Assembly: GCA_963713955.1 (NCBI GenBank)
Contig: OY970216.1
Coordinates: forward strand, 442,252-506,251
DNA length: 64,000 bases
From: an uncultured bacterium
GTDB lineage: Bacteria > Patescibacteriota > Minisyncoccia > UBA6257 > GWB1-50-10
Reading direction: 5' to 3'
Positions 7,904 to 60,375 of the stretch are shown in pieces. The notes under the pieces are model-generated. The model searched no databases, was not told the DNA's origin, and saw only the letters and a program-made list of their open reading frames with translations. The stretch's first letter is position 1; every line of letters begins with the position of its first letter. The position numbers and the translations under genes were made by a program.

Positions 7904-7914
7904 CTGGAAGTCTT

Positions 7915-8952
7915 TCAGTTATGCTGCAGTATTTGCAATCCGTACATTTGGACCTGGGATACGGTAGCGCTGTTACCGAGATAAACAAGGAAGTAGGGTG
8001 AACCCCACGCGTTGCTGGTTTTGAGATAGATATAAGAAAAATAAGAGGCATTGCCGGTATTAGTTGAAACATTCGTGATATTTGAATCCCTGTCGTGGAT
8101 TTGAAATTGGCCATTGGCTCTATAAAAGAAGTTTATTTTATAAACGTTGTTCAATACAAAGGGTTGGGTCATAGCTCCCGTGTCTGTCCAGCTCCTTTGC
8201 GACTGATTCCCGCCTGTTGCATCGAATTCCAAAACTTGCCCATTAAAGCCATTTCCTGGCGAGGTTAAATTCCAAGTGAGATAACTCGGTGTGGGGTTAT
8301 CCCAGCCGGTAAAAGATTGTGCTCTATAAGTTGAGTTAATCATCAAGTTATTACTCCACAGTAAAGATAAGCTGCTCCCCACTTCATACGTTGAATCATC
8401 AAGCCCTCCATCCGTCGACACGACATCATTGCTTCCCCCATAGCCATATCGTTGGGATTCCATAGAGGCGGTTAATTCGTATTTCCCTCCGCTGGTGGTG
8501 TAGGTATAATAGAGGCCGGTCGATGATGAGTTTATGGGATCTATCGGGAGTTTCGATAGGGGAGATCCTGATGAAATGAGCGTCAGATTCACCGGTATCC
8601 AACCTGTGCCGTCCACCTTGGTGGAAGAAGCAGCTGGAACGCAATGATAGCTCCAGCCTGAAGGGAGAATGGGAAGAGACCATGATCCGCAGGTGGAAGA
8701 TGAATCCGGGAGGGAAACGTAGGTAGTCGATGCGGTTCCCAAGGGTTGGGTGAATTGATCCGCCGTGAAGAGAGATAAGGCGCTATTCAGAGCTGCGAGG
8801 TCTGAGAGGCGGGTGGAATCCCTTCCTTGAGCTATGAGTTGGGTTGGGTTCAGGACGAGAACCACGGCAGTCGCCAGAACGGCGAGAATTGCAATTACAA
8901 CGAGGAGTTCAATAAGTGTAAAACTGGCTCTATCGCGGAGATTCATTATCAC
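7915..8952 (-). CDS. type IV pilin-like protein (class III signal peptide, FTLIELLVVIAILAVLA) with conserved N-terminal module and divergent beta-rich C-terminal domain; paralog 1 of 3
   Basis: prepilin N-methylation motif; ~75% aa identity to N-terminal 170 aa of 34703..35887 and 58197..59432. Confidence 0.85.
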   Translation of the reverse strand: MIMNLRDRASFTLIELLVVIAILAVLATAVVLVLNPTQLIAQGRDSTRLSDLAALNSALSLFTADQFTQPLGTASTTYVSLPDSSSTCGSWSLPILPSGWSYHCVPAASSTKVDGTGWIPVNLTLISSGSPLSKLPIDPINSSSTGLYYTYTTSGGKYELTASMESQRYGYGGSNDVVSTDGGLDDSTYEVGSSLSLLWSNNLMINSTYRAQSFTGWDNPTPSYLTWNLTSPGNGFNGQVLEFDATGGNQSQRSWTDTGAMTQPFVLNNVYKINFFYRANGQFQIHDRDSNITNVSTNTGNASYFSYIYLKTSNAWGSPYFLVYLGNSATVSQVQMYGLQILQHN

Positions 8953-8971
8953 TTATTATAACAAAGTTTTG

Positions 8972-9053
8972 TGCCCGGGGTGGGACTCGAACCCACATGG
9001 GATAGACCCATACGATTTTGAGTCGTACGCGTAAACCATTCCGCCACCCGGGC
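8972..9053 (-). tRNA. tRNA-Leu (anticodon CAA), class II with long variable arm
   Basis: manual fold: acceptor GCCCGGG/CCCGGGC, D-arm GCGGAATGG, anticodon loop CUCAAAA, T-loop TTCGAGT. Confidence 0.8.
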
Positions 9054-10382: not shown

Positions 10383-11402
10383 ATGCCGATAGGAAGAGGA
10401 TTATCGTCTCTCATTCCGCCGAGGGAAGGAGGGAATGATGTCTCGGCGGAACAGCTTCAGAAAACCGACCGTCCACCCGCTCCAGCGGCGGGTAGCGGTC
10501 TTGACTCTCACCGCGATGCCTCCAAAACGTTTGGAGACCAAGCGCATCGCGGTTCCGAGACATTTTCTTCAGCTGTTCTGCCGAGACAAATGAGTGGAGT
10601 TGGTGGTAAGAAGCCGCAATCACGCGAAGCGGTTTTTCAAATTGAAACAAATAAGATCGTTCCGAATCCGTTCCAGCCGAGACGCGAATTCGAAGACGGC
10701 ACGCTCGACGAGCTCGCCGAATCGATAAAACAATTCGGCATCATCCAACCGCTCATCGTTTCGAAAGTGACCGAGGAAACGGAAACCGGAACGGACGTCT
10801 CGTACCAGCTCATCGCCGGCGAACGGCGGCTCCGAGCTGCGCAGAAACTTGGTCTGGAGCGAGTGCCGGTCATCGTGAGAGAGATTGAATATCCGGGACA
10901 CAAGCTTGAACTGGCGCTCATCGAGAATATCCAAAGGCGCGATTTGAATCCCATCGAAGAAGCCAAGGCCTATTCCCGTTTGCAAGACGAATTCGGTTTG
11001 ACGCAAAAGGAAATAGGGGTGCGAGTCGGGAAAAGCAGGGAAGTGGTGGCTAACAGTCTCCGGCTCCTTAATTTGCCGCGGGACATCCAGAAAGCCCTTG
11101 CGGAGAGCAAGATAAGCGAGTCCCAGGCGAGAGCACTCCTTTCCATTCCGAACGCTGCCGACCAGGAACGGACCTTCAGAGATATTCTCGATCAGAAATT
11201 GAGCGTCAGGAGCATTCGGAGCGAGATAAAAAAGCAGGAACGCCCCGAAGATCCGGAAGTCATTTTTTTGAAAAAGAAGCTCGAGGAACATCTCGGCATG
11301 CCTGTCAGGATCGTGGGACAGGGCGGGAAGGGAAAGATCGTGATCGATTTCTTTTCCAAGGAAGATATTAAGAATTTTATCGACAAGCTCGGCGGAGAGT
11401 AA
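10383..11402 (+). CDS. parB: chromosome partitioning protein ParB/Spo0J with ~70-aa low-complexity N-terminal extension
   Basis: RGLSSLIP N-terminal motif, LIAGERRLRAA ParB box, HTH. Confidence 0.85.
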   Translation: MPIGRGLSSLIPPREGGNDVSAEQLQKTDRPPAPAAGSGLDSHRDASKTFGDQAHRGSETFSSAVLPRQMSGVGGKKPQSREAVFQIETNKIVPNPFQPRREFEDGTLDELAESIKQFGIIQPLIVSKVTEETETGTDVSYQLIAGERRLRAAQKLGLERVPVIVREIEYPGHKLELALIENIQRRDLNPIEEAKAYSRLQDEFGLTQKEIGVRVGKSREVVANSLRLLNLPRDIQKALAESKISESQARALLSIPNAADQERTFRDILDQKLSVRSIRSEIKKQERPEDPEVIFLKKKLEEHLGMPVRIVGQGGKGKIVIDFFSKEDIKNFIDKLGGE

Positions 11403-12043: not shown

Positions 12044-12121
12044 GGGCTCGGTAAGGCGAAAAAGTGGGTAAGACTTGGCCTAGCGGCCCGGAGCGCACAC
12101 TTTTTCGGCTTGCCGGGCCCC
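12044..12121. repeat. structured palindromic repeat, family F1 copy C (reverse orientation), between convergent genes
   Basis: ~78 bp; 10-bp stem CGAAAAAGTG/CACTTTTTCG plus inner hairpin; 3 copies in window. Confidence 0.7.
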
Positions 12122-12129
12122 GCAGTGTC

Positions 12130-18112: not shown

Positions 18113-19237
18113 TTTAGACAGTCACTCGACAAGTTTTCTCGTCGTTTTTTCATTCTCTCACACTGCTATCTTCTCTGCAAACACCGAAGGCGGCATCCTG
18201 AGAGCGGAGTGGATTCTTGTATGGTTGTACTCCCAAAGCGTTCGGTAGATCTCCGCCACAAGTTCCCCTAAGGATCTGAACCGATTAGGATCGCCAAGAT
18301 CCATTTTGAATTTTCCGTAGAAAGATTCTTGGTATCCGTTCTCCCACGGCGATCCGGGGCGTGAGCGGGAGATGGTGATGCCGTAGCGCTCAAGCATAGC
18401 GATGAACGCCTTCGCTTCGTATTCCCTCCCGTTGTCAGAATGGAAGATCACGGGTCGCGGGCAATGGAAGAGCGCGTTCGCCAGAGTTTGGATGGTGAGC
18501 GTCGATCCCTTCCGGGTCGCCACATGAACGCCCATCAGTTGCCTCGTAAACAGGTTAAGGATCGTTGATACGTACAGCTTCTTCCCGTGAAAGACAAGCT
18601 CCGTGAAATCCGTCGCCCAGACATGGTTCGCATATGATGGCATAATGCCGAGGAGGAGGTTCGGGAAGTGCCGTTCCGCCTTGGATTTCCTGTATTTTCT
18701 CCCATGCCTGCGGTAGGGCTTGATGCCGTAAATCCGCATGACCCGTTGCGCTCTCGGTCTGCCGATGCCGAGCGCAATCGCCAGTCGGCGTGAGCCGTAT
18801 GAGGGATGCTCGTGAAGCACCTCCTCCGTCCGGACCTTTAATGCCCAATCCTTCTTGTCCTGCGTTGCGACGTAATAGAGCGATGAGCGCGAGACACCCA
18901 TGGCGCGAGCCAGGGCGGATACGTTCCTTTCCCTGCTCAATTCTTTTTTTGGGTCTGGGACAGCTTGATCGTGAGTTCACCGATCACTTCGAAGAGTTCC
19001 TGATTCTGTTTCTTTAGGCGATTGATTTCTCCCCAGGAGGGAGCGCTCGTGGCACCGGCGCCGAGCCATCCATACACGGTTGTCTCGTGGACGCCTGCAT
19101 CTTTTGCCGCTTCTGCGACGGAGACGCCTTCTTCCTTCACGCGGCGGACAATCTCCGCTTTTACCTCTTTCGCTACCCGATATCCTTTTTTGTTAGCCAT
19201 GACACAATGGTAATTTGTTCCGACCTTTGTGTCTAAA
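18113..19237 (-). mobile_element. IS3-family insertion sequence (copy 1): orfA 18937..19200 (HTH) and orfB 18158..18940 (DDE integrase) on minus strand; ends approximate
   Basis: orfA/orfB overlap typical of -1 frameshift; DDE core HSDNGREY...PWENGYQESF; terminal TTTAGACA(G/C) at both ends. Confidence 0.8.
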
Positions 19238-22080: not shown

Positions 22081-22680
22081 ATGGGATCAATACTGACTTT
22101 TCTTCTCTCTTATCTCCTTCTCTATAAGTACGCGGCACTTTTCTTGATAGTCTTCTCGTCGGCCATGATACTGCCCTTGCCGGTGACGGAGGTCATGCTC
22201 GCCGTGGGAGCGTTCGTCGGCCAAGGCTATTTCGACTTTATAATCTCCCTTACCGTCGCCCAAGTTGCCAACGTTTTGGGCGATCTCGTGGACTACGCGA
22301 TAGCCAGGAAATACGGTTATGGGGTTATCCATAAATTGAGACTAAATAGATCCCGTTTTTTTACAAAGTTGGAACAGGAAATGCAGGTGCACGCGAGATC
22401 GACCATTTTCGTGACTCGTTTCGCCGGAGGATTGGGACCCGTTGTCAATCTTCTCTCCGGAGCCATAGGGATATCTCTCCGAAAGTTCCTTGTTTACGAT
22501 TTTGCCGGTAACCTCGTTTACTACATCGCGGCGCTTTTGATCGGATACTGGGCCGGAAGTTATTGGGAGAACTTCTCGGAGCTCATGAGTCTCGTCGTGG
22601 GAATCTTAGTCGTCGTCGTCGTGATGATTGCTCTTTGGAGGATTTACAAAAGAATAAGATTGAACCACTCCAAACATTAG
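22081..22680 (+). CDS. DedA/SNARE-associated family membrane protein
   Basis: DedA-like topology and motifs. Confidence 0.75.
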   Translation: MGSILTFLLSYLLLYKYAALFLIVFSSAMILPLPVTEVMLAVGAFVGQGYFDFIISLTVAQVANVLGDLVDYAIARKYGYGVIHKLRLNRSRFFTKLEQEMQVHARSTIFVTRFAGGLGPVVNLLSGAIGISLRKFLVYDFAGNLVYYIAALLIGYWAGSYWENFSELMSLVVGILVVVVVMIALWRIYKRIRLNHSKH

Positions 22681-22683
22681 GAG

Positions 22684-22756
22684 ACCCGGCAAGCCGAAAA
22701 AGTGTGCGCTCCGGGGCGCTAGCCCAAGTCTTACCCACTTTTTCGCCTCACCGGGC
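22684..22756. repeat. structured palindromic repeat, family F1 copy A, between convergent genes
   Basis: cccggcaagccGAAAAAGTGtgcgctccgGGGCgctaGCCCaagtcttaccCACTTTTTCgcctcaccggg. Confidence 0.7.
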
Positions 22757-22770
22757 CTCCTGTGGTAGAT

Positions 22771-25727: not shown

Positions 25728-26824
25728 GACACTTTTTCGACAAGTTTCTGGTAGCGATTCGAGAACAGTGCAGGCGGCATCCTGAGGGCGGAGTGGATTC
25801 TCCGGTGGTTGTAGTCCCAGACCAGGCGATGGATCTCGTAGACCAGCTCTCCCAGCGATTTGAACCTCTCCGGATCGCCCAGATCCACCTTGAACTGGGA
25901 GTAGAAGGACTCCTGGTAGCCGTTCTCCCATGGCGATGACTTCCTCGATCTCGATATCCTGACGCCGAGGTTCAAAAGAGCTCCGGTGAAGATCCTTGAG
26001 CCATACTCCCTTCCGTTGTCCGAGTGGAAGATGTTGGGTCTCGGATGATGTTCCGCCGCGGAGAAGAGTGCCTGGAGGACCAGAGGCACCGAGTGGGTAT
26101 TCATCACGGCCCAGCCCACGATCTCCCTCGCAAACAAATCCATCACGGTGGCGAGATACAGGAACTTCCCTTGGTACGGGATGTACGTGAAGTCCGCCAC
26201 CCAGATATCGTTCAATCCTTTGGGGAAGTTCTTCTGAAGGAGATTGGGATACAGGATACTCGAGAAGCCCGTTTTCCTTGGCCTTCTGCCCCTTCTCCGA
26301 TATGCCTTCATCCCGAAGAGCCTCATCACCCGTTGGGCTCTTTTTTTGTTGATCTTGAGCTCCAAAGCCACTCTTCTGAAGCCGTATGAAGGATGGTCTC
26401 TCAAGACTGATATGATCCTTTCCTTGAGCGACCAATCCTTGGGCGATTGTTTCGAGACATAGTAGAGGGAGGCGCGGGAGAGGCCGAGTTCACGGGCAAG
26501 TTCCCACTTCGTCTTCTTCTGCTTTTTGATCAACGCTTTTTTTGAGTGCGTGAGGAGGCCAGGGTGAGCTCGCCCACGAGGGCGAGGAGCTCTTCGTTCT
26601 GGCGCTTGAGGCGGACGAGTTCACCGATCGTGGGGGTGCCTTTCACGCCCCTTCCCAGCCAGTTGTATATGGTGGCGGGATTCAGACCGTGTTCCTTGGC
26701 GGCCTGGACGACCGGGATCCCTTCCTCCTTGATTCTCTTCAATATCTGCTCCTTCACCTCGGGAGCAGTGCGATATGTTTTCTTCATGACACAAGGGTAT
26801 ATTGACTTCGACCTTTGTGTCTAA
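25724..26824 (-). mobile_element. IS3-family insertion sequence (copy 2): orfA 26530..26787, orfB 25724..26533; ~50% aa identity to copy 1, so a distinct IS of the same family
   Basis: DDE motifs, orfA/orfB overlap; ends TTAAGACAC ... GTGTCTAA homologous to copy 1 ends. Confidence 0.8.
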
Positions 26825-26845
26825 TATATGGGGGTCAGGCCACTC

Positions 26846-26903
26846 CTTCGCTAAAGCTTCGGACGGGCACAGCGATACTGCGCTGATGCTGGCTGCCGAG
26901 AGT
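26846..26903. repeat. 58-bp direct repeat (family F4 copy a): ctccttcgctaaagcttcggacgggcacagcgatactgcgctga..tggctgccgag, a candidate att site
   Basis: 54/58 identity to 29722-29779, which overlaps the 3' end of tRNA-Gln. Confidence 0.65.
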
Positions 26904-27063
26904 CTATTCTCACCGGTATAGATTTATCCGCTTAAACTCTCACTTTTTATTTTATCACTCCGGTTCGAATTCCGGGCGGGTCGTCAAAAAAACAGAATCA
27001 CGTCTCAAGATGAATGCCTACGCGTTTTCAGTAAGGATATCTATTTTTTGATATAATTAACTT

Positions 27064-29583: not shown

Positions 29584-29721
29584 ATATTTCTACTCGCGTT
29601 AGTTCGAATCCAGTCGGGTGAAAAGAGAACACCAATCCGAATTCTAAAAAGGTCACGGGTCTCGGATTAGAACTGATATTCAAAAAAGATAGAATTTAAG
29701 GCTCTCCGGTCTCGCTCCCTC

Positions 29722-29779
29722 CTTCGCTAAAGCTTCGGACGGGCACAGCGATACTGCGCTGACTGTGGCTGCCGGGCTT
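29722..29779. repeat. 58-bp direct repeat (family F4 copy b) overlapping the last 14 nt of tRNA-Gln
   Basis: see 26846-26903. Confidence 0.65.
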
Positions 29780-29839
29780 GGATTCGAACCAAGATACTGG
29801 GCTCCAAAGGCCCATGTCCTACCGTTAGACGACCCGGCA
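29766..29839 (-). tRNA. tRNA-Gln (anticodon TTG), CCA encoded
   Basis: manual fold: acceptor TGCCGGG/CCCGGCA, anticodon loop CTTTGGA, T-loop TTCGAAT. Confidence 0.8.
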
Positions 29840-30584: not shown

Positions 30585-30665
30585 GCTGACTCGGCAAGCC
30601 GAAAAAGTGTGCGCTCCGAGCCGCTAGGCCAAGTCTTACCCACTTTTTCGTCTCACCGAGTCAGC
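30585..30665. repeat. structured palindromic repeat, family F1 copy B, between convergent genes (overlaps dnaX stop)
   Basis: outer stem gctgactcgg/ccgagtcagc, inner stem AGCC-gcta-GGC covaries with copies A and C. Confidence 0.7.
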
Positions 30666-34702: not shown

Positions 34703-35887
34703 ATGTCCATCCATTCTCGTTCTTCCTTCACCCTGATCGAGCTCCTGGTAGTCATCGCCATCCTTGCCGTCCTTGCAACCGCCGTCGTCTTGGTCTTGAA
34801 TCCCGCCCAGCTCTTAGCTCAAGGAAGAGATTCAACCAGGCTCTCTGATCTCTCTGCCTTGAATAGTGCCCTCTCCCTCTTCCAGGCAGATCAATATACC
34901 CAGTCCTTAGGGACTCCAAATACCCTCTACGTATCAGTTCCCGATACCACATCCACCTGTGCCAATCTGGGACTGTCTTCTCCTCCTATAGGATGGGCCT
35001 ATCACTGTGTTCCAAGCTCTTCCTCAACAAGAGTAGACGGAACAGGCTGGATTCCCGTGAATCTTACCCTCCTATCATCAGGATCCCCTTTATCCAAGCT
35101 CCCGATAGACCCTACGAATACCACTAGTTCTGGACTCTACTATACCTACGTATCAGGAGGCTCCTATGCCTTATCCAGTGCCTTGGAATCACAGAAATAC
35201 CTTGTATCCACCGCATCCCAAGACCAAGGCTATGATCCTGGGAGGTATGAGATCGGTTCTGACCTATCCCTTATTGGAAGGAGTGAAGGATTAGTAGGAT
35301 GGTGGCCCCTGGATGGAGACCCGGGGGACAGGAGTGGGAACGGGAACAATGGGACGTGGTATGGATCCATGATCGGAGGTTCTTACTATACGGGAGGGAA
35401 GATCAACCAGGCTGGGAACTTTAATGGGACGGATGATTATGTGAATGTTCCAACGAGCCCGTTATTACATCCCTTGAGCTACGTTACGGTTTCTGCCTGG
35501 GTAAATATGACATCGTCAACTGGCCCATTTGATGGAATCACTACTGATAACGGCAACGACTACTATTTGCAAGCACAATGGCCCAAGTGGCGTTTCTATG
35601 TCATTAACACCTCTAGTGTATATAAAGATGTCTTTTCGATAAATAACATTACGACTGGGCAGTGGTATTTTTTAACCGGTGTCTACGACGGATCGAACGT
35701 TTCCCTATATGTCAATGGCGTTCTACAAGCACAAAATCCTCAAACAGGGAACATACAAAATTCGGCCGGAAACATAACAATATCAACGGGTGGACGTCAT
35801 TTTTATGGAACGATCGACGACGTCCGCATCTACAACCGAGCATTGTCCGCGGCAGAGATTCAGGCGATTTATAATGCACAAAAGTAG
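34703..35887 (+). CDS. type IV pilin-like protein with C-terminal LamG/concanavalin-A-like lectin domain; paralog 2 of 3 (ORF track start 34658; probable ATG 34703)
   Basis: FTLIELLVVIAILAVLA prepilin motif; C-terminus ...DDVRIYNRALSAAEIQAIYNAQK typical of LamG_3 jelly-roll domains. Confidence 0.85.
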   Translation: MSIHSRSSFTLIELLVVIAILAVLATAVVLVLNPAQLLAQGRDSTRLSDLSALNSALSLFQADQYTQSLGTPNTLYVSVPDTTSTCANLGLSSPPIGWAYHCVPSSSSTRVDGTGWIPVNLTLLSSGSPLSKLPIDPTNTTSSGLYYTYVSGGSYALSSALESQKYLVSTASQDQGYDPGRYEIGSDLSLIGRSEGLVGWWPLDGDPGDRSGNGNNGTWYGSMIGGSYYTGGKINQAGNFNGTDDYVNVPTSPLLHPLSYVTVSAWVNMTSSTGPFDGITTDNGNDYYLQAQWPKWRFYVINTSSVYKDVFSINNITTGQWYFLTGVYDGSNVSLYVNGVLQAQNPQTGNIQNSAGNITISTGGRHFYGTIDDVRIYNRALSAAEIQAIYNAQK

Positions 35888-42244: not shown

Positions 42245-42748
42245 ATGCAATCATTAGTTGAAAACTTCGGCATAGATTGGAGACTTTTGCTGAGCCAGTT
42301 CTTTAACTTCCTTGTGATTCTCGCAATATTCACTTTCCTGATCTACAAGCCGCTCTCAAAGAACATTGCCGAGAGAAGAAAAAAAATAAAAGAGGGATTA
42401 GACAAGGAGGAGGAAGCCTCAGAACGCTTGTCGGAAATCGCCGTCTTGGAAAAGGAAACCCTGAAGAAAGCCGAGGGTGAAGCCGTCGGCATTATATCCG
42501 GCGCTGAGGCAAGGGCCAAGGAACGCGAATCCGAGATTCTCCAGGAAGCCGAGGAGAAGAACAAGGAAATGCAGCGCAAGGCTCTCGAGGAAATCAACGA
42601 AGAGAAACAAGAGTCGCTCCGGAAAGCCGAAAAAGAAATAGCGTCCCTCGCCAAGGAAGTACTGGTAAAGGCCGTCAAGGTTAATCCGTCGGCCGTCGAC
42701 GAAGCGCTCTTGAAAAGAGTCACGGAAGAAACGGTGAAAGAGAAATGA
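42245..42748 (+). CDS. atpF: ATP synthase subunit b
   Basis: N-terminal TM then long charged helix. Confidence 0.8.
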   Translation: MQSLVENFGIDWRLLLSQFFNFLVILAIFTFLIYKPLSKNIAERRKKIKEGLDKEEEASERLSEIAVLEKETLKKAEGEAVGIISGAEARAKERESEILQEAEEKNKEMQRKALEEINEEKQESLRKAEKEIASLAKEVLVKAVKVNPSAVDEALLKRVTEETVKEK

Positions 42749-50660: not shown

Positions 50661-50670
50661 AAATGCTCGC

Positions 50671-50740
50671 CAGGTACTCCTTCCTCAGGCAGTCTCCGGG
50701 GCGACGCCCAAGTCTTAGCCTTCGGAAGGAGTGCCTGCCT
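50671..50740. repeat. structured repeat family F2 copy 1 (caggtactccttcctcaggcagtctccggggcgacgcccaagtcttagccttcggaaggagtgcctg)
   Basis: 3 copies (50671, 51547, 59745 rc); shares core ctccgGGGC...GCCCaagtctta with F1. Confidence 0.65.
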
Positions 50741-50830
50741 TGCGGCAGACAAACCGGACTCCACACGGTTTTATATCAGAAGCAAAATTTCTCTGTTGTA
50801 AAAAAGAATTTACTGTGATATAATTGAAAC

Positions 50831-51161: not shown

Positions 51162-51354
51162 CTTTCTTTTTTCCTTTACTGATCGTCTTAAGACACCTGA
51201 CGCAGATCAGAACCCTTTTTCCCGGAATAATGTTCCTTACGAGTTTCAAGTTCGCCTTCTTCTTTTGCGAAGAGGTAGGGTTGTAATGGCTCCGGAGCAT
51301 CACCCGAGTATTCCCCGCCGTATACGATTTCCCGCAAATGTAGCACTGCCGCAT
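51148..51354 (-). CDS. rpmB: 50S ribosomal protein L28
   Basis: CYICGKSYTAGNTR..SH and RVLICVRCLKTISKGK align to the L28 family. Confidence 0.8.
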   Translation of the reverse strand: MRQCYICGKSYTAGNTRVMLRSHYNPTSSQKKKANLKLVRNIIPGKRVLICVRCLKTISKGKKKAPSR

Positions 51355-51546
51355 GCCCTGTAGTACAACTTCGAATTTACTTGTTCGAATGGTAAACTTT
51401 CATTTCTCGACCGTAAATTTCTCCATGATGAGATACATCTCTAGTTTCTGAGCAATTATATGCCCGAGACACTATCGAAGTTGTCCTACGGGGCATGGTC
51501 TGTAGATTATCAAAACAACATACTTATGTCAATAAATTTGCGCTCA

Positions 51547-51649
51547 CCTGGTACTCCTGCTCAGGCAGTCTCCGGGGCGACGTCCAAGCCCCGTACTACA
51601 ACTTCGTTGTAGTGCAGGGCAAGTCTTAGCCTTCGCAGAAGTACCAGGC
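51547..51649. repeat. repeat family F2 copy 2 carrying a nested F3 palindrome (51594-51623) inserted at CAAG
   Basis: identical to F2 copies 1 and 3 apart from the 30-bp insertion ccccgtactacaacttcgttgtagtgcaggg. Confidence 0.65.
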
Positions 51650-51686
51650 TCGCCCTTCAAGAAGAAGTGCTTTAGTCTTCTTCGTT

Positions 51687-53540: not shown

Positions 53541-54007
53541 GGAGAAAAGGATTCAAAAAAAGAGAACACGCCGCCGACAGCGCTTATGCGAGAGTTGACA
53601 TGGGCAGATTCATTAACTATTTGATGGAGGGCGGCAAAAAAACGGTAGCCGAGAAGGTTTTTTATGGCGCACTTCGCGAAATAGAAAAAACGACCAAGGA
53701 AGATCCCGTGAAGATTTTTGAGAAAGCCGTTGAGAATGCAACTCCTCTCCTCGAGGTAACCTCAAAAAGGATAGGTGGCGCCAACTACCAGATTCCGCGA
53801 GAGGTGAGGAATGAAAGAAAATTTTTCCTTGCGACGCACTGGATCATAGACGCGGCAAGGAAGAAAAAAGGCAAACCGATGGCTGAGAAGCTGGCGGAAG
53901 AAATCGTGGCCGCCTCCAAGAATGAGGGGGCAGCTATAAAAAAGAAACAAGACACGCACCGGATGGCAGAGGCGAACCGCGCGTTCGCAAGCTACTTGAG
54001 GGGTTAA
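53537..54007 (+). CDS. rpsG: 30S ribosomal protein S7 (start ATG 53537 overlaps rpsL stop)
   Basis: S7 family block ...[16 protein letters not shown]... Confidence 0.9.
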
Positions 54008-54008
54008 T

Positions 54009-54138
54009 CCCTCACCCTTCGAGGATAAGCAATTATCCGGAAGCGGAAGGAGAATTAATCATGAAAATGAAAAGTTTATCAAACAACAGTCGCTCAGATT
54101 ATAAGGATCACTTTTTGATGATCCTCGAAGGGTGAGGG
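54009..54138 (+). promoter_or_regulatory. 18-bp perfect inverted repeat (ccctcacccttcgaggat / atcctcgaagggtgaggg) enclosing a 24-codon mini-ORF (54061..54135, own GGAGG RBS); right arm contains the fusA Shine-Dalgarno
   Basis: read directly; mini-ORF stop TGA lies 3 nt before the fusA ATG. Confidence 0.6.
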
Positions 54139-56244
54139 ATGCCGAGACAATACCCACTGGAAAAAGTAAGGGATATCGGCATTATTGCCCACATCGATGC
54201 GGGCAAGACCACGACGTCGGAGCGCGTCCTTTTTTACACCGGCGTTTCGCACAAAATAGGCGAGGTGCACGAAGGTGACACGATAATGGATTGGATGGAA
54301 CAAGAACGGGAGCGGGGCATAACGATAACTTCCGCGGCGACGACCTGCTTTTGGATCCCCACGTACGCCAAGGGAAATAAAGCGGACGAACACCGGATAA
54401 ATCTCATAGACACCCCTGGCCACATAGACTTCACCGTTGAAGTCAAAAGATCTCTCAGGGTTCTTGACGGAGCCGTTGTCGTCTTCGACGGCGTCGCCGG
54501 CGTAGAACCTCAGTCGGAAACAAACTGGCATTACGCCGACGAATATAAAGTTCCGAGAATCTGCTTCATAAACAAACTGGATCGCATGGGAGCCAGCTTC
54601 GATTTCAGCTTCAACTCCATAATGGAGCGCCTGACGCCGAACGCCATAGCCATACAACTACCCCTAGGCCTTGAATCGGCTTTTGAAGGAGTGATCGATT
54701 TGTTGAACATGAAAGCCATAAGATTCGAAGGCGAGCACGGAGAAAAAGTAATCGAAGGCGAGATTCCGGAAAACATGCGGGAAGAAGCCAAGAAAAAAAG
54801 GCATGAATTGATAGAAAAAATAGTAGAGAAAGACGACGGACTCATGGCACTTTATTTGGAGGGGAAAGAACCGGACATTGCTTCGCTTAAAAGGACACTC
54901 CGAACCGAAACGATAGCCAACCGCCTCGTGCCGGTTTTTTGCGGGTCGGCCTTGCAGAATAAGGGCGTTCAGTTGATCTTGGACGCAGTGGTCGATTACC
55001 TCCCGTCCCCGATCGACATGCCACCCATAAAAGGAATAAATCCCTCGACTGGCATGGAAGAAGAACGGCATCCTCTTGACGACGAACCGCTCGCCGGCCT
55101 CGCTTTCAAAATTGCTGCCGATCCTTTCGTCGGATCTCTCACGTACTTCAGGGTTTATGCCGGAACGATAAAACGAGGAAGCTATGTCCTGAACGCGACG
55201 AAAAACTCACAGGAAAGGATCGGGAGGTTGGTCAGAATGCACGCTAATCACCGGGAAGAGGTAGAGGAGTTGTACGCGGGCGATTTGGGCGCCATCGTCG
55301 GCCTCAAGAACACGACGACGGGCGATAGCTTGACCGATCCGGAACATCCGATCATACTCGAAAAAATAATTTTCCCAGAGCCGGTCATTTCAGTACGAAT
55401 CGAACCAAAGACGAAAGCTGATCAAGAAAAAATGGGCATCGCCTTACACCGCCTCTCGGAAGAAGACCCTACCTTCAAGGTTTCCGGCGACGAAGAAACC
55501 GGCGAAACCATTATTGCCGGCATGGGAGAACTCCACCTGGAAATCATAGTCGACCGGATGAAAAGGGAATTCGGCGTCGAGGCAAGCGTCGGCCGTCCAC
55601 AGGTTGCCTACAAAGAAACAATAAAAGGAGAGGCGGAGGCGGAGGGGAAATACATACGGCAATCGGGCGGACGTGGCCAATACGGACATGTCTGGCTCAA
55701 AGCCGAGGCACTGGAGAGGGGAGAGGGCTTTGAATTTGTCGATTCGATAAAGGGCGGCGTGATCCCGCAAGAATTTATTCCTGCCGTCGAAAAGGGGGTA
55801 CGGGAAGCTCTCGAGAGAGGAATCCTCGCGGGGTATCCCGTGATCGATCTCAAAGTGACTCTCTTCGACGGTTCGTACCACGAAGTCGATTCGTCGGAAT
55901 TCGCTTTCAAGATAGCCGGCTCAATGGCTCTCCAAGAAGCCGCAAAAAGAGCGAAGCTCGTTCTCCTCGAACCGATCATGAAGGTTCAAGTCATCGTTCC
56001 ACCCGATTTCTTGGGCGACGTGACGGGCGATTTGAGTTCAAAGAGGGGAAAAATCAAAGCGATGGGCGAGCGCGGCACGGTGCGGGTGATAGACGCAAAC
56101 GTCCCCCTAGCCGAAATGTTCGGCTACTCGACGAGTTTGAGATCGATGACTCAGGGAAGGGGATCTTTCAACATGGAATTCTCGCACTATGAAGAAATAC
56201 CCCAAAGCGTAGCGCAAACCATAATAGAAGGAAGAAAAAAATGA
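54139..56244 (+). CDS. fusA: elongation factor G
   Basis: GTPase G1-G5 motifs, EF-G domains II-V. Confidence 0.97.
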
Positions 56245-57548: not shown

Positions 57549-57881
57549 ATGCCCAAAAAAGAAGCAGACCTCCAAAAAGACAAACTGAGAATAAAGATAA
57601 AAGCTTACGATTCGAAACTGATCGATAATTCGGTACGTCAGATAATCGAGACGATAAAAAGACAGGGCGGTGACGTACGAGGTCCCATACCGCTTCCGAC
57701 TGAATTCAAGAAATATGCAGTGAATCGTTCCACCTTCGTTCACAAGAAATCGGGAGAGCAATTTGAACTCAGAATCCACAAGCGGCTCCTCGACATCGTG
57801 AATCCGGAGCAAAAAATCATCGAGTCACTGACGGATCTCAATCTCCCCTCGGGAGTGGATGTGGAAATAAAGATGGAGTAA
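57549..57881 (+). CDS. rpsJ: 30S ribosomal protein S10
   Basis: S10 family; followed by intrinsic terminator 57902-57928. Confidence 0.9.
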   Translation: MPKKEADLQKDKLRIKIKAYDSKLIDNSVRQIIETIKRQGGDVRGPIPLPTEFKKYAVNRSTFVHKKSGEQFELRIHKRLLDIVNPEQKIIESLTDLNLPSGVDVEIKME

Positions 57882-57901
57882 GCAAGAGCAACCACCAAAA
57901 A

Positions 57902-57928
57902 CACCGCTCATTTGAGCGGTGTTTTTGG
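57902..57928 (+). terminator. rho-independent terminator after rpsJ (caccgctcatttgagcggtg + TTTTT)
   Basis: perfect 8-bp stem plus T-run. Confidence 0.65.
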
Positions 57929-57959
57929 TTTTCTTCAATGTGAATCTGAGAAAGCAGCT

Positions 57960-58166
57960 GGAATCCCTTTTCACTAAAACCCTCAGTTGTTAAAATCCTC
58001 CTCGCTCTTCATCGGAATAAAGTCGCACAATAGCGAACTCAACCTTGGTTTCATTAATGAAACCAGCGGGATTCAAACATTCGCTATTGTGCTCATTCCT
58101 TCCTCATCGCTCGGGGATTTATAAACAACCTCGGGCAAACCGTTCAAAGGGATTCCAGCTGCTTCT
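57960..58166. repeat. ~207-bp MITE-like element with 21-bp terminal inverted repeats (gaaagcagctggaatcccttt / aaagggattccagctgcttct) and nested palindromes (gcacaatagcgaa...GGTTTCATTAATGAAACC...ttcgctattgtgc)
   Basis: read directly; lies between the rpsJ terminator and the pilin-lectin gene promoter. Confidence 0.55.
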
Positions 58167-58196
58167 TTTCTCTTGTCTTGTAGTATAATTAACCTA

Positions 58197-59432
58197 ATGA
58201 ATCTCAGAGGTAGAGAATCCTTCACCCTGATCGAGCTCCTGGTCGTGATTGCGATCCTTGCCGTCCTTGCGGTGGCCGTCGTCTTGGTCTTGAACCCTGC
58301 CCAGCTCCTGGCTCAAGGAAGAGATTCGACTCGTTTGTCTGATCTTTCCGCTCTGAATAGCGCCCTCTCCCTCTTCCAGGCAGATCAATATACCCAGTCC
58401 TTAGGGACTCCGAATACCCTCTACATATCAGTCCCTGACAATGCCTCCTCCTCCTGTGGTTCCTTAGGCCTCCCAACTCCTCCCCCAGGATGGGCCTATC
58501 ACTGTGTTCCCCAAGCTTCTTCCACGAAGGTAGATGGTTCCGGCTGGATTCCCGTGAATCTGACCCAAATCTCATCAGGAAGTCCCTTATCCAAGCTTCC
58601 GATAGACCCTGCCAATTCTTCCTCCTCAGGACTCTACTATACCTATACGCTCTCCAGCAACGGGAAGTATGAATTGACCTCAGAATTGGAGTCCCAGAAA
58701 TACGTTCCTACCATGGCCCAGGATGGAGGTTCCTATGACGGTCTCTACCAGATTGGTTCCCAGGTGGATATCACTCCTCCCTTCCGGAGCTCTGGACTCA
58801 TGGGGTATTGGCCGTTCGACGAGGGGAGTGGGACCACGGCATACAATTCCTCGGGGAATAATAACAATGGGAGCTGGAGCGGGGCGACGCCGTATTATAC
58901 AGCCAGCGCGAAGGTGGGAGCGTACGCTGGGAATTTCAATGGGAGCAATGATATCGTTACCTTACCGACAGGCAGCACTCAATTAGAGACACCCAGCATA
59001 ACTGTTTCTGCTTGGATTAATTTTACGGCCGCTACGAGTAGTAACTATGATATCTTTCAGAAGAAGCGTCCCTATGGCAATTACCGCGGCTACGAACTTT
59101 ATATAAACCTCAGCAATCAAGCACAATTTGATATCGGAAATGGCTCAGCGTATATTACGGGTCCGTCATCCTCAGTTTCTAAGAATACATGGACTTTTAT
59201 TGTAGGAAGCTATGATGGCAATAACATCAACATATATGTCAATGGAACCCTAAAATCTACTGTAGCGAATAATACCGGTATTAGTTATTCTGGGGGTAGT
59301 AGTCCGGGGACATATATAGGCACTGACAGTGGTAATGCTAATTACTTTACCGGCTTCATGGACGACGTCCGCATCTACAACAGGGCATTATCCGCCGCGG
59401 AGGTCCAGGCGATCTATAATGCACAGAAATAG
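58197..59432 (+). CDS. type IV pilin-like protein with C-terminal LamG-like lectin domain; paralog 3 of 3, located inside the S10 operon (ORF track TTG 58173; probable ATG 58197)
   Basis: ~88% nt identity to paralog 2 over the first ~500 bp and the last ~70 bp; divergent middle. Confidence 0.85.
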   Translation: MNLRGRESFTLIELLVVIAILAVLAVAVVLVLNPAQLLAQGRDSTRLSDLSALNSALSLFQADQYTQSLGTPNTLYISVPDNASSSCGSLGLPTPPPGWAYHCVPQASSTKVDGSGWIPVNLTQISSGSPLSKLPIDPANSSSSGLYYTYTLSSNGKYELTSELESQKYVPTMAQDGGSYDGLYQIGSQVDITPPFRSSGLMGYWPFDEGSGTTAYNSSGNNNNGSWSGATPYYTASAKVGAYAGNFNGSNDIVTLPTGSTQLETPSITVSAWINFTAATSSNYDIFQKKRPYGNYRGYELYINLSNQAQFDIGNGSAYITGPSSSVSKNTWTFIVGSYDGNNINIYVNGTLKSTVANNTGISYSGGSSPGTYIGTDSGNANYFTGFMDDVRIYNRALSAAEVQAIYNAQK

Positions 59433-59744
59433 AAGGTAAAGCACCAAATCCCAAGCACCAAATCCCAAATAATACCCCAATGTTCGAATTTCAAATTTAA
59501 GTATTTATTTGTTATTTGGAATTTGGATCTTGGAATTTCACTGCTTCGGTTAACCGAAGCGGTCTCATTAATGAAACCACCTCTACAAACATTAGGCTCG
59601 AGCTTAATCTTTGTAAAACGAGAGCTTACAATATTCCTACTTCCAAAGAGAAGCAGCCCAAGGTTTCCTTGAACGTTTTTCCGGAAGGCGTTTGAGTCCC
59701 AGTCGTTTATTTCTTTTAGGAGGTGGGATGATTCCAAAGAGCGA

Positions 59745-59812
59745 GGCAGGTACTCCTTCCGAAGGCTAAGACTTGGGCGTCGCCCCGGAGACTGCCTGAG
59801 GAAGGAGTACCT
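59745..59812. repeat. repeat family F2 copy 3 (reverse orientation) upstream of rplC promoter
   Basis: near-identical to 50671-50740. Confidence 0.65.
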
Positions 59813-59850
59813 GACGAGTAAGAAGAAATCATCTCGCCGACGCCCCTTTG

Positions 59851-59880
59851 TTGACAAAAAAAGCCCTTTTAGCTAATATA
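59851..59880 (+). promoter_or_regulatory. sigma-70-like promoter for rplC and downstream genes (-35 TTGACA 59851, -10 TAATAT 59875)
   Basis: consensus hexamers with 18-nt spacing. Confidence 0.45.
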
Positions 59881-59949
59881 AAGGCCAAAGAGACAGGTAG
59901 CCAGAAAATAAACCGGGCTAGGGTCTCGGTTCTTTTTTTGGATAAAAAT

Positions 59950-60375
59950 ATGGTGAAAATCACCGGCATAAAACTCAAAATGTCGCAGGTATGGAAGGGA
60001 GACGAAGTGATCGCTGTCACGCCGGTTAAAGTTTCCGAGGAAAGCGCCCTCGGAGAGGTGAAAGAAGGAGAAAAAGTCAAAGTAAGCGGTGCAAGCAAGG
60101 GAAGAGGATTTCAAGGGGTGGTGAAAAGACACGGATTTCACGGCGGGCCCAAGAGCCATGGACAAAAAGACCGCTTGCGGGCGCCGGGCTCGATAGGTCC
60201 CACCGCGCCCCAGAGAACCATCAAGGGAAGAAGAATGGCGGGCCACATGGGAACAAGGAAAGTAACGGTCAAGAATTTGGAAATCATCGGAATCAAAAGC
60301 GACGAAAAGACGCTTCTTGTGAAGGGCGCCGTGCCGGGTCCGGTAGGCGGGAAAATTGAGATAACCAAACAATAA
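59950..60375 (+). CDS. rplC: 50S ribosomal protein L3 (short; ORF track start 59848; probable ATG 59950)
   Basis: GRGFQGVVKRHGFHGGPKSHG... Confidence 0.85.
   Translation: MVKITGIKLKMSQVWKGDEVIAVTPVKVSEESALGEVKEGEKVKVSGASKGRGFQGVVKRHGFHGGPKSHGQKDRLRAPGSIGPTAPQRTIKGRRMAGHMGTRKVTVKNLEIIGIKSDEKTLLVKGAVPGPVGGKIEITKQ

Follow-up and report, generated by a model that had tools for sequence, protein, structure and literature searches.

Discovery of a pilin gene inside the S10 ribosomal cluster

In the 64-kb window, by which we mean the whole stretch of DNA that was analysed, a pilin-lectin gene lies between the ribosomal protein genes rpsJ and rplC. This arrangement probably arose when a gene from a large family of modular pilins (stalk, LamG head and own promoter) was inserted into a Paceibacterota rpsJ-rplC spacer that was already an open boundary. 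There was no tight operon here to be broken, and the gene insertion itself is an ordinary event. The rpsJ-rplC pair is among the most conserved gene adjacencies in bacteria and lies within the syntenic ribosomal protein block used for placing uncultivated lineages. A Paceibacterota junction that has its own promoter and leader and repeatedly captures unrelated genes matters for operon prediction in Paceibacterota genomes, for ribosomal protein control (the control point seems to lie before rplC, not before rpsJ) and for quality checks of binned genomes that presume tight synteny.

Layout of the rpsJ-rplC gap

The two genes are separated by 2,068 nt containing, in order, a terminator, a hairpin element of ~215 nt, a gene for a 411-aa pilin-LamG protein, further hairpins, a repeat and a promoter. 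The first-pass annotation had put rpsJ and rplC about 2 kb apart and had listed these features between them; all were found where it had placed them, to within a few bases. The features are as follows.

57549-57881, plus strand: rpsJ (ribosomal protein S10); Pfam PF00338 Ribosomal_S10 108 bits, NF001861 139 bits
57894-57936, plus strand: intrinsic-terminator-like hairpin with a 16-bp stem (8 G-C pairs), a 4-nt loop and a T-rich tail
57948-58171, unstranded: 'LH' palindromic repeat element, ~215 nt, recognised by inverted repeats, fold and homologous copies
58046-58065, unstranded: 20-nt perfect palindrome TGGTTTCATTAATGAAACCA, which includes an 18-bp motif and forms the tip of this LH copy
58184-58189, plus strand: pilin -10 box TATAAT, read from the sequence, 7 nt before the ATG
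58197-59432, plus strand: modular type IV pilin gene, 411 aa; Pfam N_methyl 26.8 bits, Laminin_G_3 110 bits; TIGR02532
59439-59538, unstranded: AT-rich imperfect hairpin beginning with a 14-nt tandem duplication (two copies of AAGCACCAAATCCC)
59540-59563, unstranded: G+C-rich hairpin ACTGCTTCGGTT/AACCGAAGCGGT without a T-run, abutting the second palindrome
59561-59593, unstranded: second palindrome site, GGTCTCATTAATGAAACC plus ~15 nt, aligning directly with 58047-58081
59584-59735, unstranded: two further hairpins, one at 59584-59615 and a long one at ~59630-59735
59741-59818, plus strand: F2 repeat, forming a hairpin whose ~45-nt core is invariant and whose stem covaries from copy to copy
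59851-59879, plus strand: rplC-operon promoter TTGACA-17-TAATAT, from the sequence and from relatives
59897-59940, plus strand: rplC leader with a TAGCCA box, an A-rich tract, a terminator-like hairpin (AACCGGGCT...GGTCTCGGTT) and U7
59950-60375, plus strand: rplC (ribosomal protein L3); Ribosomal_L3, TIGR03625 137 bits

The rpsJ gene starts 26 nt after tuf and is therefore probably the last gene of an rpsL-rpsG-fusA-tuf-rpsJ unit. The rplC product is unusually short (141 aa), and rplC is followed by rplD, rplW, rplB, rpsS, rplV and rpsC. A stem-loop followed by a U-run was found at 57894-57929 (followed by TTTTCTT) and at 59911-59931 (followed by CTTTTTTT), and an intrinsic terminator function is predicted for both. 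The first of these, annotated earlier as a terminator at 57902-57928, has a folding energy of -27.3 kcal/mol (z = -7.5) and probably ends the tuf-rpsJ transcript. A hairpin directly 3' of rpsJ was also present in two relatives with long spacers (L010 and L088).

On the other side of the pilin gene, the stretch 59433-59850 as a whole folded with z = -7.9, and within its long hairpin, 59659-59671 and the TTTTT after it form a weak terminator-like site. The F2-family repeat that had been noticed here was recovered at 59741-59818, ~30 nt upstream of the rplC promoter. It is an inverted copy of 50666-50743 (96-97% identity) and belongs to a set of at least five copies in ~100 kb of this genome. One F2 copy carries an extra palindrome, a nested insertion.

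A 147-aa minus-strand ORF (59414-59857) and four small ORFs in the flanks had no Pfam match; we treated them as spurious, and the flanks have no credible coding potential. At the gathering threshold, an Rfam scan of the whole window returned four tRNAs only. A permissive scan of 57850-59990 gave just sub-threshold matches that tracked the hairpins, with no family even at E <= 10, and a scan of the loci of 11 relatives found 16S rRNA only.

The arrangement is supported by independent assemblies

Two assemblies span the locus: the 804,691-bp contig and ENA contig_145351 (32 kb; loci L001/L004), a second assembly that covers the whole locus at 99.9% identity. The arrangement is the same in both, with the unique DNA on either side of the pilin gene contiguous. 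Logan contigs from two other runs extend from rpsJ 164 nt into the gap and from rplC 161 nt into it, at 100% identity. Since the two spanning assemblies and the Logan junctions agree, the rpsJ-pilin-rplC arrangement is not an assembly chimera. A false join between a multi-copy pilin gene and the ribosomal cluster might have been suspected from the at least 12 similar copies of the pilin family and from the breaks of short-read assemblies around the gene, but with both long contigs and both gap junctions in agreement such an artefact is extremely improbable. No structural variant of the locus was seen between the two near-identical spanning assemblies. Both Logan contigs on the rpsJ side (L002 and L003) stop at 58045, the left edge of the first palindrome, and these breaks could reflect population heterogeneity at that point.

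The inserted gene encodes a modular type IV pilin with a LamG head

The protein starts with MNLRGRES|FTLIELLVVIAILAVLAVAVV, an 8-aa leader with Ser at -1, Phe at +1 and Glu at +5. It thus has the class III signal peptide of type IV pilins: a short charged leader, G/A/S at -1, Phe/Met at +1, Glu at +5 and a hydrophobic helix. Among 67 homologues, 31 have Ser at -1, 20 have Ala and 16 have Gly. The Pfam N_methyl score exceeded its cut-off (26.8 against 21.2 bits), as did TIGR02532 (20.5 against 16.3 bits). The LamG domain was identified both by profile (PF13385, 110 bits against a cut-off of 27.6, residues 248-404) and by its jelly-roll fold. In an AlphaFold2 model with a mean pLDDT of 88, an N-terminal helix (residues 11-63) is followed by a small pilin beta domain, a LamG/concanavalin-A-like beta sandwich (~residues 200-395, nt ~58795-59381) and a conserved C-terminal helix. 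Foldseek matched the sandwich to carbohydrate-binding jelly rolls, including domain 4 of AbnA (5hon_A, E = 8e-12, TM 0.78), a trans-sialidase lectin domain and clostridial toxin Hc domains. At E <= 1e-10 the pilin had 1,696 homologues, whose source names were Paceibacterota or Patescibacteria prepilin or LamG proteins. The scanned ORFs of the 64-kb window included no pilus machinery genes.

The position of the -10 box implies a pilin mRNA that would be leaderless or nearly so. With a terminator before it and a promoter of its own, the pilin gene therefore looks like a separate transcription unit, as predicted from these signals. It has no canonical terminator, and read-through into the rplC leader is therefore possible.

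The pilin gene belongs to a dispersed paralogue family

At least 12 pilin paralogues are dispersed over the same 804,691-bp contig. They are near-identical in the N-terminal ~150-200 residues and in the last ~23, and their LamG cores are variable; at 12 copies or more within 805 kb, this family, constant in the stalk and variable in the lectin head, is strikingly expanded. Each paralogue stands alone amid housekeeping genes; their neighbours include tRNA-Leu and tgt, each followed by a paralogue, and nusB near secE-nusG-rplK. A -10-like box was located 7-9 nt before the ATG in all eight copies read; in the seven other than the copy studied here, it lay at 8-9 nt and read TATAAT in six (mostly TGnTATAAT) and TACAAT in one. 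The 18-bp palindrome and the LH element were absent from the flanks of all seven. Outside the coding region, homology between paralogues reaches just ~15 nt upstream of the ATG and ~11 nt past the stop codon.

Recent duplication of a paralogue was rejected as the origin of the gene, the third-codon-position identity to the nearest copy being just 40-78% in the conserved N-terminal half. The G+C content of the insert is within the range of its surroundings and the same genome has many paralogues; recent horizontal acquisition was therefore rejected as well. A limited full-text literature search returned no account of the placement of this family in the S10 cluster, of its leaderless promoters or of the constant-stalk/variable-head pattern.

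The pilin gene is absent from this junction in relatives

A synteny check of rpsJ-rplC was run across relatives. The pilin gene was found at the junction in none of ~45 relatives, the nearest of which share just ~83% S10 identity with the window, and no pilin match was present at the junction in any of ~160 loci. The earlier reading of a pilin-lectin gene inserted between rpsJ and rplC is supported by its absence from this position in every relative examined. Five relatives with 78-83% S10 identity (L006, L007, L008, L086 and L087) have a spacer of 120-260 nt without a gene. In 48 Patescibacteria-like loci, those sharing 58% S10 identity or more, the minimal spacer had a median of ~260 nt and reached 1,958 nt, against a median of 10 nt in the other 98 loci. 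Some of the longer spacers contain genes of other kinds: an aldo/keto reductase (L011), a NUDIX gene with others (L093) and hypothetical ORFs (L009, L010 and L094). As judged from these sequences, the rpsJ-rplC junction is an open, regulated boundary in this clade, at which different lineages hold different genes.

These data also bear on whether the pilin gene was gained or lost. If the common ancestor had carried it at the junction, repeated losses would have left the long spacers; such long, variable spacers are indeed widespread among the relatives and could be scars of lost genes, and an LH element is retained at the junction in L009 and L088. However, tblastn detected no pilin remnant in any spacer, the cargo genes of other lineages are mutually unrelated, and the short spacers of the closest relatives contain promoter and leader only. 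Several independent losses would be required against one gain. We therefore regard ancestral presence as very unlikely; parsimony favours gain over repeated loss, and the pilin insertion appears to be lineage-specific.

The rplC promoter and leader predate the insertion

The promoter before rplC had been described as fresh. The comparison did not bear this out, for the promoter and the leader hairpin, which ends 10 nt before the rplC ATG, are conserved in relatives lacking the pilin gene. A sigma-70-like promoter with a spacing of exactly 17 nt precedes rplC in 14 of 15 relatives, at a distance of 47-161 nt, which narrows to 68-120 nt once two relatives are set aside. In L007, the closest relative, both hexamers and their spacing are those of the window and the leader hairpin is almost identical too; the TAGCCA box is likewise kept, together with a terminator-like leader hairpin, in relatives without the pilin gene. 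Compensatory changes were seen at 5 of the 10 pairs of the hairpin (alignment A1). A leader model (R1) built from alignment A2, with the window and nine relatives as seed, scored 40.8 bits at the window and matched the rpsJ-rplC spacer of 14 relatives, five of them outside the seed. The terminator after rpsJ was considered as a possible duplicate of the leader; it matched this model weakly (20 bits, E about 0.1), and the two stems are unrelated.

With promoter and leader hairpin conserved in relatives without the pilin gene, the boundary therefore predates the gene, and the ribosomal cluster, on these predicted signals, was split at rpsJ-rplC before the pilin insertion. Thus, of the proposal that the ribosomal operon is split around the pilin gene, the part that stands is that the gene looks like a unit of its own; the boundary itself is older. 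In analogy to the L4-controlled E. coli S10 leader, the rplC leader hairpin may act as an attenuator, or it may be a simple terminator for upstream transcripts.

The LH element and the 18-bp palindrome

The element upstream of the pilin gene has an outer stem of 19 perfectly paired nt (57952-57970/58146-58164), particular to this copy, and inner arms at 58014-58037/58080-58103. As DNA, it has a folding energy of -49 kcal/mol (z = -9.4). Its conserved core (~57966-58149) includes the boxes ACTCAACC and GGGATTCA on either side of a variable tip. A second copy in the same genome (L168:1509-1700) is 90-94% identical in the core and differs in tip and outer stem, and a third, diverged copy is located at 575-782 of the window (nhmmer match 587-748, E = 3e-4), giving three copies in ~100 kb of this genome. 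Relatives have homologues as well, two in L009 and one in L088; these belong to different species, and the central part of the present copy is in the opposite orientation to theirs. Every copy lies 10-20 nt upstream of a promoter. LH is a repeat family located upstream of promoters.

This element had been called MITE-like, with 21-bp terminal inverted repeats. It is indeed small, non-coding and multi-copy, and inverted repeats are present at its ends, but they are 19 nt perfect, not 21 nt. In a MITE recognised by a transposase, the ends are conserved between copies. The LH pattern is the reverse: the outer stems are entirely different between copies, with no terminal inverted repeats in common, and the inner core is conserved. 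No target-site duplication was found at LH, the flanks TCTGAGA and CTTTTCT containing no direct repeat.

The 18-bp motif GGTYTCATTAATGAAACC occurs exactly twice in the 64 kb (58047-58064 and 59561-59578), where none is expected by chance, which confirms that the same palindrome stands on both sides of the pilin gene. The match between the two sites, in direct orientation, reaches ~33 nt (58047-58081 against 59561-59593). Neither ~100 kb of this genome nor ~160 related loci yielded a further copy; the palindromes are accordingly not generic terminators. The palindrome is the variable tip of this single LH copy, and other LH copies have other tips. We read the second palindrome as an isolated fragment of the LH tip. 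The palindrome brackets the pilin gene because it is an LH tip: a full LH element precedes the pilin promoter and a tip fragment precedes the rplC promoter. Identical 18-bp tips at two LH-like sites around one gene are not explained by chance, and the two sites most likely derive from a local duplication. A second full LH element 3' of the pilin gene was rejected, as the LH core profile found nothing there; a weak local similarity of the downstream region to the L088 element (z = 3.5) was not convincing.

Possible roles of the palindrome pair

The first-pass annotation had taken the flanking palindromes as a cassette arrangement. In a mobile or switchable cassette, they would be sites of a site-specific recombinase, and the pilin gene could be cut out, inverted or swapped as in integrons, Xer-dif modules or fimbrial switches. 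Palindromes with a 4-6-bp centre look like minimal recombinase core sites, and variable adhesin genes are often phase-variable. Near-identical 18-20-bp palindromes, directly oriented over ~33 nt and confined to this locus in the DNA examined, flank a member of a variable adhesin family, and the contigs of two Logan assemblies end right at the edge of the first one. However, the cassette description found no support: the seven other paralogues are without palindrome or LH element, no tyrosine or serine recombinase was found among the window ORFs scanned (the sole mobile-element gene was an rve transposase 40 kb away), and there is no target-site duplication. Neither palindrome site has attC-like architecture or a GTTRRRY core. 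The first palindrome is just the variable tip of a repeat family with other tips elsewhere, and the arrangement is identical in the two spanning assemblies. A search for further palindrome-flanked cassettes found none in ~100 kb of this genome, and paired palindromes around cargo genes were found in none of the relatives. A recombinase-driven cassette is thus quite unlikely. In comparison with a fimS-type switch, inverted repeats are present, and both spanning assemblies have one orientation.

Alternatively, the palindrome could bind a dimeric transcription factor, and the two sites, 1.5 kb apart, could loop the DNA and switch this pilin independently of its paralogues. A perfect 9+9 palindrome is typical of the operators of dimeric helix-turn-helix proteins, and both of the only two copies are at this locus, the first of them preceding the pilin -10 box by ~130 nt. 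Yet that first site occupies the tip of a long hairpin element instead of overlapping the promoter, and the second follows the gene. The locus has no neighbouring regulator gene, and both sites are more simply explained as copies of one repeat tip. We consider an operator pair unlikely.

There is a small chance that the palindromes are working sites of either kind, at which a recombinase or a DNA-looping regulator, acting on the identical tips of two hairpin elements next to promoters, excises, inverts or silences this particular pilin-lectin gene. In that case, an ultra-small episymbiont carrying 12 or more adhesin variants could toggle individual variants from inside its ribosomal cluster. 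As side observations that fit such a role without showing it, the motif is exclusive to the locus in the DNA searched and the two short-read assemblies that break at the edge of the first palindrome are independent.

Under the insertion of a family member into an open spacer, the reading we prefer, the locus would work as follows, as far as its sequence can tell. Transcription of tuf-rpsJ would halt at the hairpin 57894-57929, and the pilin gene's own -10 box would drive a leaderless mRNA. A prepilin peptidase would process the pilin for assembly into type IV pili, whose LamG head may bind a glycan or another ligand on the host-cell surface. The hairpins and the F2 element would mark the 3' end of the gene, and the rplC operon would restart at its ancestral promoter and leader.

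Comparison with known systems

REP/BIME elements, the Correia elements of Neisseria and MITEs are non-coding, multi-copy, hairpin-forming intergenic repeats near promoters or gene ends. LH and F2 resemble them in all of these properties of sequence and copy number, and in the nested F2 insertion. LH differs in that its copies share an inner core instead of terminal repeats, in having no target-site duplication and no partner transposase found, and in lying consistently 10-20 nt before a promoter. A single gene between two short related palindromic sites is also the layout of integron cassettes and of Xer-dependent dif modules, but here no integrase or Xer gene is nearby, the sites lack attC architecture and have far shorter arms than dif sites, and the sampled DNA contains no second cassette.

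The E. coli S10 operon has a leader with an L4-controlled attenuator and a terminator hairpin (PMC3616713 and references therein). The rplC leader is similar in being promoter-proximal, in having a terminator hairpin with a U-run and in lying upstream of a ribosomal operon that encodes L4. It sits before rplC, whereas that of E. coli sits before rpsJ, and it has a single hairpin and a TAGCCA box where the E. coli leader has five helices; the E. coli structure was not matched, nor was any Rfam family, and structurally the likeness is limited to where a terminator hairpin sits in a leader.

Streptococcus sanguinis PilC (PMC9934059) and PilB (PMC8179133) are modular type IV pilins with a lectin module, and for PilC glycan binding has been shown, with a role in adhesion at the pilus tip (PMC9934059). 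As in PilC, the protein modelled here has an N-terminal class III signal peptide and a pilin module fused to a concanavalin-A-like/LamG sandwich. The likeness is in architecture only, with no detectable sequence relationship: a phmmer search of all PDB sequences matched geopilin, GspG, PilA and unrelated LamG-like domains, and PilC was not among the matches. The present pilin, known from sequence and model, also differs in having no Ig-like linker module and in being one of at least 12 dispersed paralogues, whereas PilC is one gene inside the pil locus.

In genomes of the CPR (Patescibacteria), several surface proteins with concanavalin/lectin domains have been described, and type IV pilus genes are thought to mediate host attachment, as shown in Saccharibacteria (PMC5220378, PMC9763046, PMC11623550). 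The pilin-LamG family, whose homologues are prepilin or LamG proteins of these same lineages, the Paceibacterota and Patescibacteria, is a good candidate for the means by which an episymbiont recognises its host.

Gene order and assembly support at the rpsJ-rplC gap

The ribosomal cluster reads rpsL, rpsG, fusA, tuf, rpsJ, then 2,068 nt, and then rplC, followed by rplD, rplW, rplB, rpsS, rplV and rpsC. The features of the gap were re-located in the window, and the description in the first-pass annotation was right except for small details.

Features of the rpsJ-rplC gap (window positions)
57549-57881: rpsJ, 5' border of the gap
57894-57929: strong terminator-like hairpin, 16-bp stem, T-rich tail
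57948-58171: LH element, a long imperfect palindrome with 19-nt perfect outer arms, inner arms and a central 20-nt perfect palindrome (58046-58065)
58184-58189: TATAAT box, 7 nt 5' of the pilin ATG
58197-59432: pilin-LamG gene, 411 codons, prepilin N-terminal methylation motif and Laminin_G_3 domain
59561-59578: second copy of the 18-bp palindrome, within a hairpin-rich stretch 3' of the pilin gene
59741-59818: F2 repeat, 78 nt, recurring at 50666-50743
59851-59879: rplC promoter, TTGACA-17-TAATAT
59911-59938: rplC leader hairpin with U7, ending 10 nt 5' of rplC
59950-60375: rplC, 3' border of the gap

Folded as DNA, the LH element reached -49 kcal/mol (z = -9.4), and the ~420-nt non-coding stretch from the pilin gene to the rplC promoter formed a string of hairpins (fold z = -7.9). 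The palindrome motif has exactly two sites in the window versus 0 expected by chance. Another structured spacer within the ribosomal cluster is a 134-nt hairpin (26-nt arms, 92% complementary) at 54007-54140, between rpsG and fusA.

The rpsJ-pilin-rplC arrangement is real. The window is part of an 804,691-bp contig (NCBI, ENA), and an independent 32-kb ENA contig covered the entire locus at 99.9% identity, differing within the gap only at 58121 and 58128 and by one added base at 58130. Logan contigs from two other sequencing runs supported both junctions at 100% identity, with tuf-rpsJ running into the gap's first 164 nt and its last 161 nt running into rplC.

The junction in relatives and the rplC promoter

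Relatives were fetched by S10 protein, 80 loci each from species-representative genomes and from metagenomes, and none of these 160 loci had a pilin gene at the rpsJ-rplC junction. The closest loci (L006, L007, L008, L086 and L087; 78-83% S10 identity, same short L3) had geneless spacers of 120-260 nt. Other spacers measured 645-705 nt in L088 and L009, 1,103 nt in L011, where an aldo/keto reductase gene is present, about 1,580 nt in L094, which has hypothetical ORFs there, and about 1,960 nt in L010, which has several small ORFs. The L093 cluster is interrupted by several genes, one of them for a NUDIX hydrolase. Measured uniformly, the minimal spacer had a median of about 260 nt where S10 identity was 58% or more (48 loci, mostly Patescibacteria) and of 10 nt for the 98 loci that fell outside this group. 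Since the relatives lack the pilin gene and their spacers are long and variable, the pilin gene is most parsimoniously a gain specific to this lineage; the junction itself is loose, and what occupies it varies across this part of the tree.

L3, the rplC product, is 141 aa long in the window, 137-148 aa in at least 12 relatives and about 200-250 aa elsewhere. Of the 202 positions in the bacterial L3 model, the window L3 matched only 97-201, and its score was just under the model's cut-off (136.9 versus 142.9 bits).

The rplC promoter had been called fresh, which was not borne out. A conserved pre-rplC module (window 59851-59940), in which a sigma-70-like promoter is followed by a TAGCCA box, an A-rich tract and a terminator-shaped hairpin that carries a U-run, was present in the spacers of L006-L009, L012, L086-L089, L091, L092, L095-L097 and L099. 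The closest relative, L007, which lacks the pilin gene, carries TTGACA-17-TAATAT followed by ATAGCCAAG...AACAACCGGGCTAGGTCTCGGTTGTTTTTTT, a leader hairpin almost identical to GTAGCCAG...AAACCGGGCTAGGGTCTCGGTTCTTTTTTT of the window. In 14 of 15 relatives, a promoter with the exact 17-nt spacing was located 47-161 nt 5' of rplC, and all but two have it at 68-120 nt. In the short-spacer relatives (L086, L095, L096, L097 and L099) its -35 box lies inside the last ~30 nt of rpsJ; in L086 the box is the GTTGAC of Val-Asp codons at the rpsJ 3' end. The leader hairpin showed compensatory changes at 5 of 10 pairs, and a covariance model of TAGCCA box and hairpin matched the rpsJ-rplC spacer in nine seed and five further relatives. 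Because promoter and hairpin are conserved in relatives, the ribosomal cluster in this clade runs as rpsL to tuf-rpsJ, then promoter plus leader, then rplC onward. The rplC promoter and leader are older than the pilin insertion, and the pilin gene landed upstream of a pre-existing promoter.

The pilin paralogue family

A homology search with the pilin returned 1,696 proteins at E <= 1e-10, named in their sources as prepilin or LamG proteins of Paceibacterota or Patescibacteria. The 804,691-bp contig carries at least 12 pilin-LamG copies (at least 11 besides 58197-59432). The paralogues are nearly identical over ~150-200 residues at the N terminus and over the final ~23 residues (DDVRIYNRALSAAEIQAIYNAQK), and the identity of their LamG cores falls to 0-57%.

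The flanks of eight copies were read, three in the window (58197-59432; 34703-35887; 7915-8946, minus strand) and five on further contigs from this genome (L166, L168 and L169). All eight have a -10-like box 7-9 nt 5' of the ATG (seven TATAAT, mostly TGnTATAAT, and one TACAAT), a distance too short for a ribosome-binding site. Because of this box, each copy read would have its own promoter and probably a leaderless mRNA. Each copy stands alone amid unrelated housekeeping genes, with examples following tRNA-Leu, preceding an ABC transporter gene, following tgt, and flanked by nusB and a DNA glycosylase gene near secE-nusG-rplK. Homology between copies ends ~15 nt 5' of the start and ~11 nt 3' of the stop, and no palindrome or long hairpin element was found beside the other seven copies read. 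The paralogue at 7915-8946 is without a LamG match and starts ~25 nt after tRNA-Leu (8971-9053, same strand), with its -10 box inside that gap; a copy in L166 (8687-9906) looks split or decayed.

The LH element and the two palindromes

Copies of the LH element (~200 nt, palindromic)
Window: 575-782 and 57948-58171
L168 (same genome): 1509-1700
L009 (relative): 412-615 and 7692-7905
L088 (relative): 6631-6845

The L168 copy is 90-94% identical to the gap copy over the inner ~150 nt, where stem differences are compensatory; tip and outer stem differ. The third copy of this genome (575-782) is more diverged. The gap copy and those of L009 (two) and L088 (one) have exact 12-14-nt blocks around the tip in common, in opposite orientation (nhmmer E = 0.009). 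The tip is flanked by short boxes, ACTCAACC and GGGATTCA, and differs from copy to copy; the gap copy's tip is simply the 18-bp palindrome. A promoter lies 10-20 nt 3' of every copy, serving hrcA, a glutaredoxin gene and the pilin gene in this genome and rpsL and rplC in L009 and L088. The label MITE-like thus held for a small, non-coding, multi-copy element, but not for its ends, which are not conserved, its lack of target duplication or its strikingly regular position. With variable ends and no target duplication, LH was rejected as a MITE.

The second palindrome site shares ~33 nt with the tip and right-arm start of the gap LH copy, and the rest of the element is absent there. Because LH tips differ among copies, a local duplication probably gave rise to one of the two same-tip sites from the other. 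The downstream site is located 3' of the pilin gene and 5' of the rplC promoter, the side bearing LH in L009 and L088; LH-type sequence, present now or formerly 5' of both promoters, would then bracket the pilin gene by position. Alternatively, the two sites may be used by a recombinase or regulator. Both independent Logan assemblies (L002 and L003) end at 58045, the base before the 20-nt palindrome, and no repeated k-mer accounting for this stop was found in the sampled DNA; a heterogeneous population, or further LH copies in another part of the genome, could be the cause.

The proposed cassette found no evidence of mobility in the data examined. The only mobile-element genes found in the window were an rve-family (DDE) transposase gene (18158-18940, minus strand) and a 174-nt stretch (25764-25937) that matches part of it at 75% identity and lies within an ORF of 336 aa without a Pfam match. 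As a whole, the first-pass observation was confirmed and its interpretation supported in part: one self-promoted gene from an expanded pilin-lectin family forms a lineage-specific insertion here, at a pre-existing ribosomal-cluster boundary with its own promoter and leader. The more original side products are the clade-wide open junction with its conserved rplC leader, the promoter-adjoining LH elements and the F2 elements.

F2 and other repeats

Copies of F2
Window: 59741-59818, 50666-50743 and 51540-51650
L169 (same genome): 8260-8300 and 11216-11261

These five copies in about 100 kb have an invariant ~45-nt core (CGAAGGCTAAGACTTGGGCGTCGCCCCGGAGACTGCCTGAG) within an outer stem, with compensatory changes at nine pairs; one has a nested extra palindrome. 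F2 is not in Rfam. Three copies lie 28-310 nt 3' of a protein-gene stop codon, one directly after another pilin paralogue, and a fourth about 230 nt 3' of tRNA-Pro, all in sense orientation. Two are followed after about 25-30 nt by a TTGACA promoter, that of rplC and that of a probable L28 gene. F2, placed mostly just 3' of genes or just 5' of promoters, is a genome-wide element and not a cassette part; in the gap, the pilin unit plausibly has its 3' end at F2.

The L28-like 55-aa ORF (51188-51354, minus strand; Pfam E = 0.002, below cut-off) has a TTGACA-17-TAATCT promoter upstream, directly 3' of an F2 copy. A further intergenic family (~70-100 nt, 81-96% identical, both orientations) occurs at 12045-12128, 22674-22757, 30592-30660 and 42605-42635. 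A 72-nt direct repeat (86% identical) lies at 26843-26914 and 29719-29790; its second copy runs into tRNA-Gln (29766-29839, minus strand) and could be a partial tRNA duplication or an integration-site scar.

The pilin-LamG protein and comparison with known systems

The product of 58197-59432 begins MNLRGRES|FTLIELLVVIAIL, with a short leader, a small residue at -1 (S, A or G among 67 homologues), Phe at +1, Glu at +5 and a hydrophobic helix. As these are the defining features of the class, it is a type IV pilin. An AlphaFold2 model built on the 67 homologues was confident (mean pLDDT 88) and predicted a long N-terminal helix spanning residues 11-63, then a small beta domain, a beta sandwich (~200-395) and a C-terminal helix. 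In the PDB, the sandwich matched jelly rolls that bind carbohydrates, namely AbnA arabinanase domain 4 (TM 0.78), a trans-sialidase lectin domain and the clostridial neurotoxin Hc domain. The modelled architecture is that of a modular pilin.

CPR bacteria are known to have several surface proteins with lectin domains, as well as type IV pili that have been tied to host attachment (PMC5220378, PMC9763046, PMC11623550). The best-studied modular pilin with a concanavalin-A-like module is PilC of S. sanguinis, which binds glycans (PMC9934059). It has the same design as the window pilin, but no sequence relationship between the two was detectable; the likeness is therefore one of design, not of family.

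The rplC leader had no Rfam match, and the conserved pre-rplC module is a candidate for a new ribosomal-protein leader or attenuator in Paceibacterota. A terminator-shaped hairpin located ~15 nt downstream of where an L4-encoding operon is predicted to start is reminiscent of the attenuator, controlled by L4, in the S10 leader of E. coli (PMC3616713); the E. coli leader precedes rpsJ, whereas the candidate leader of the window precedes rplC.
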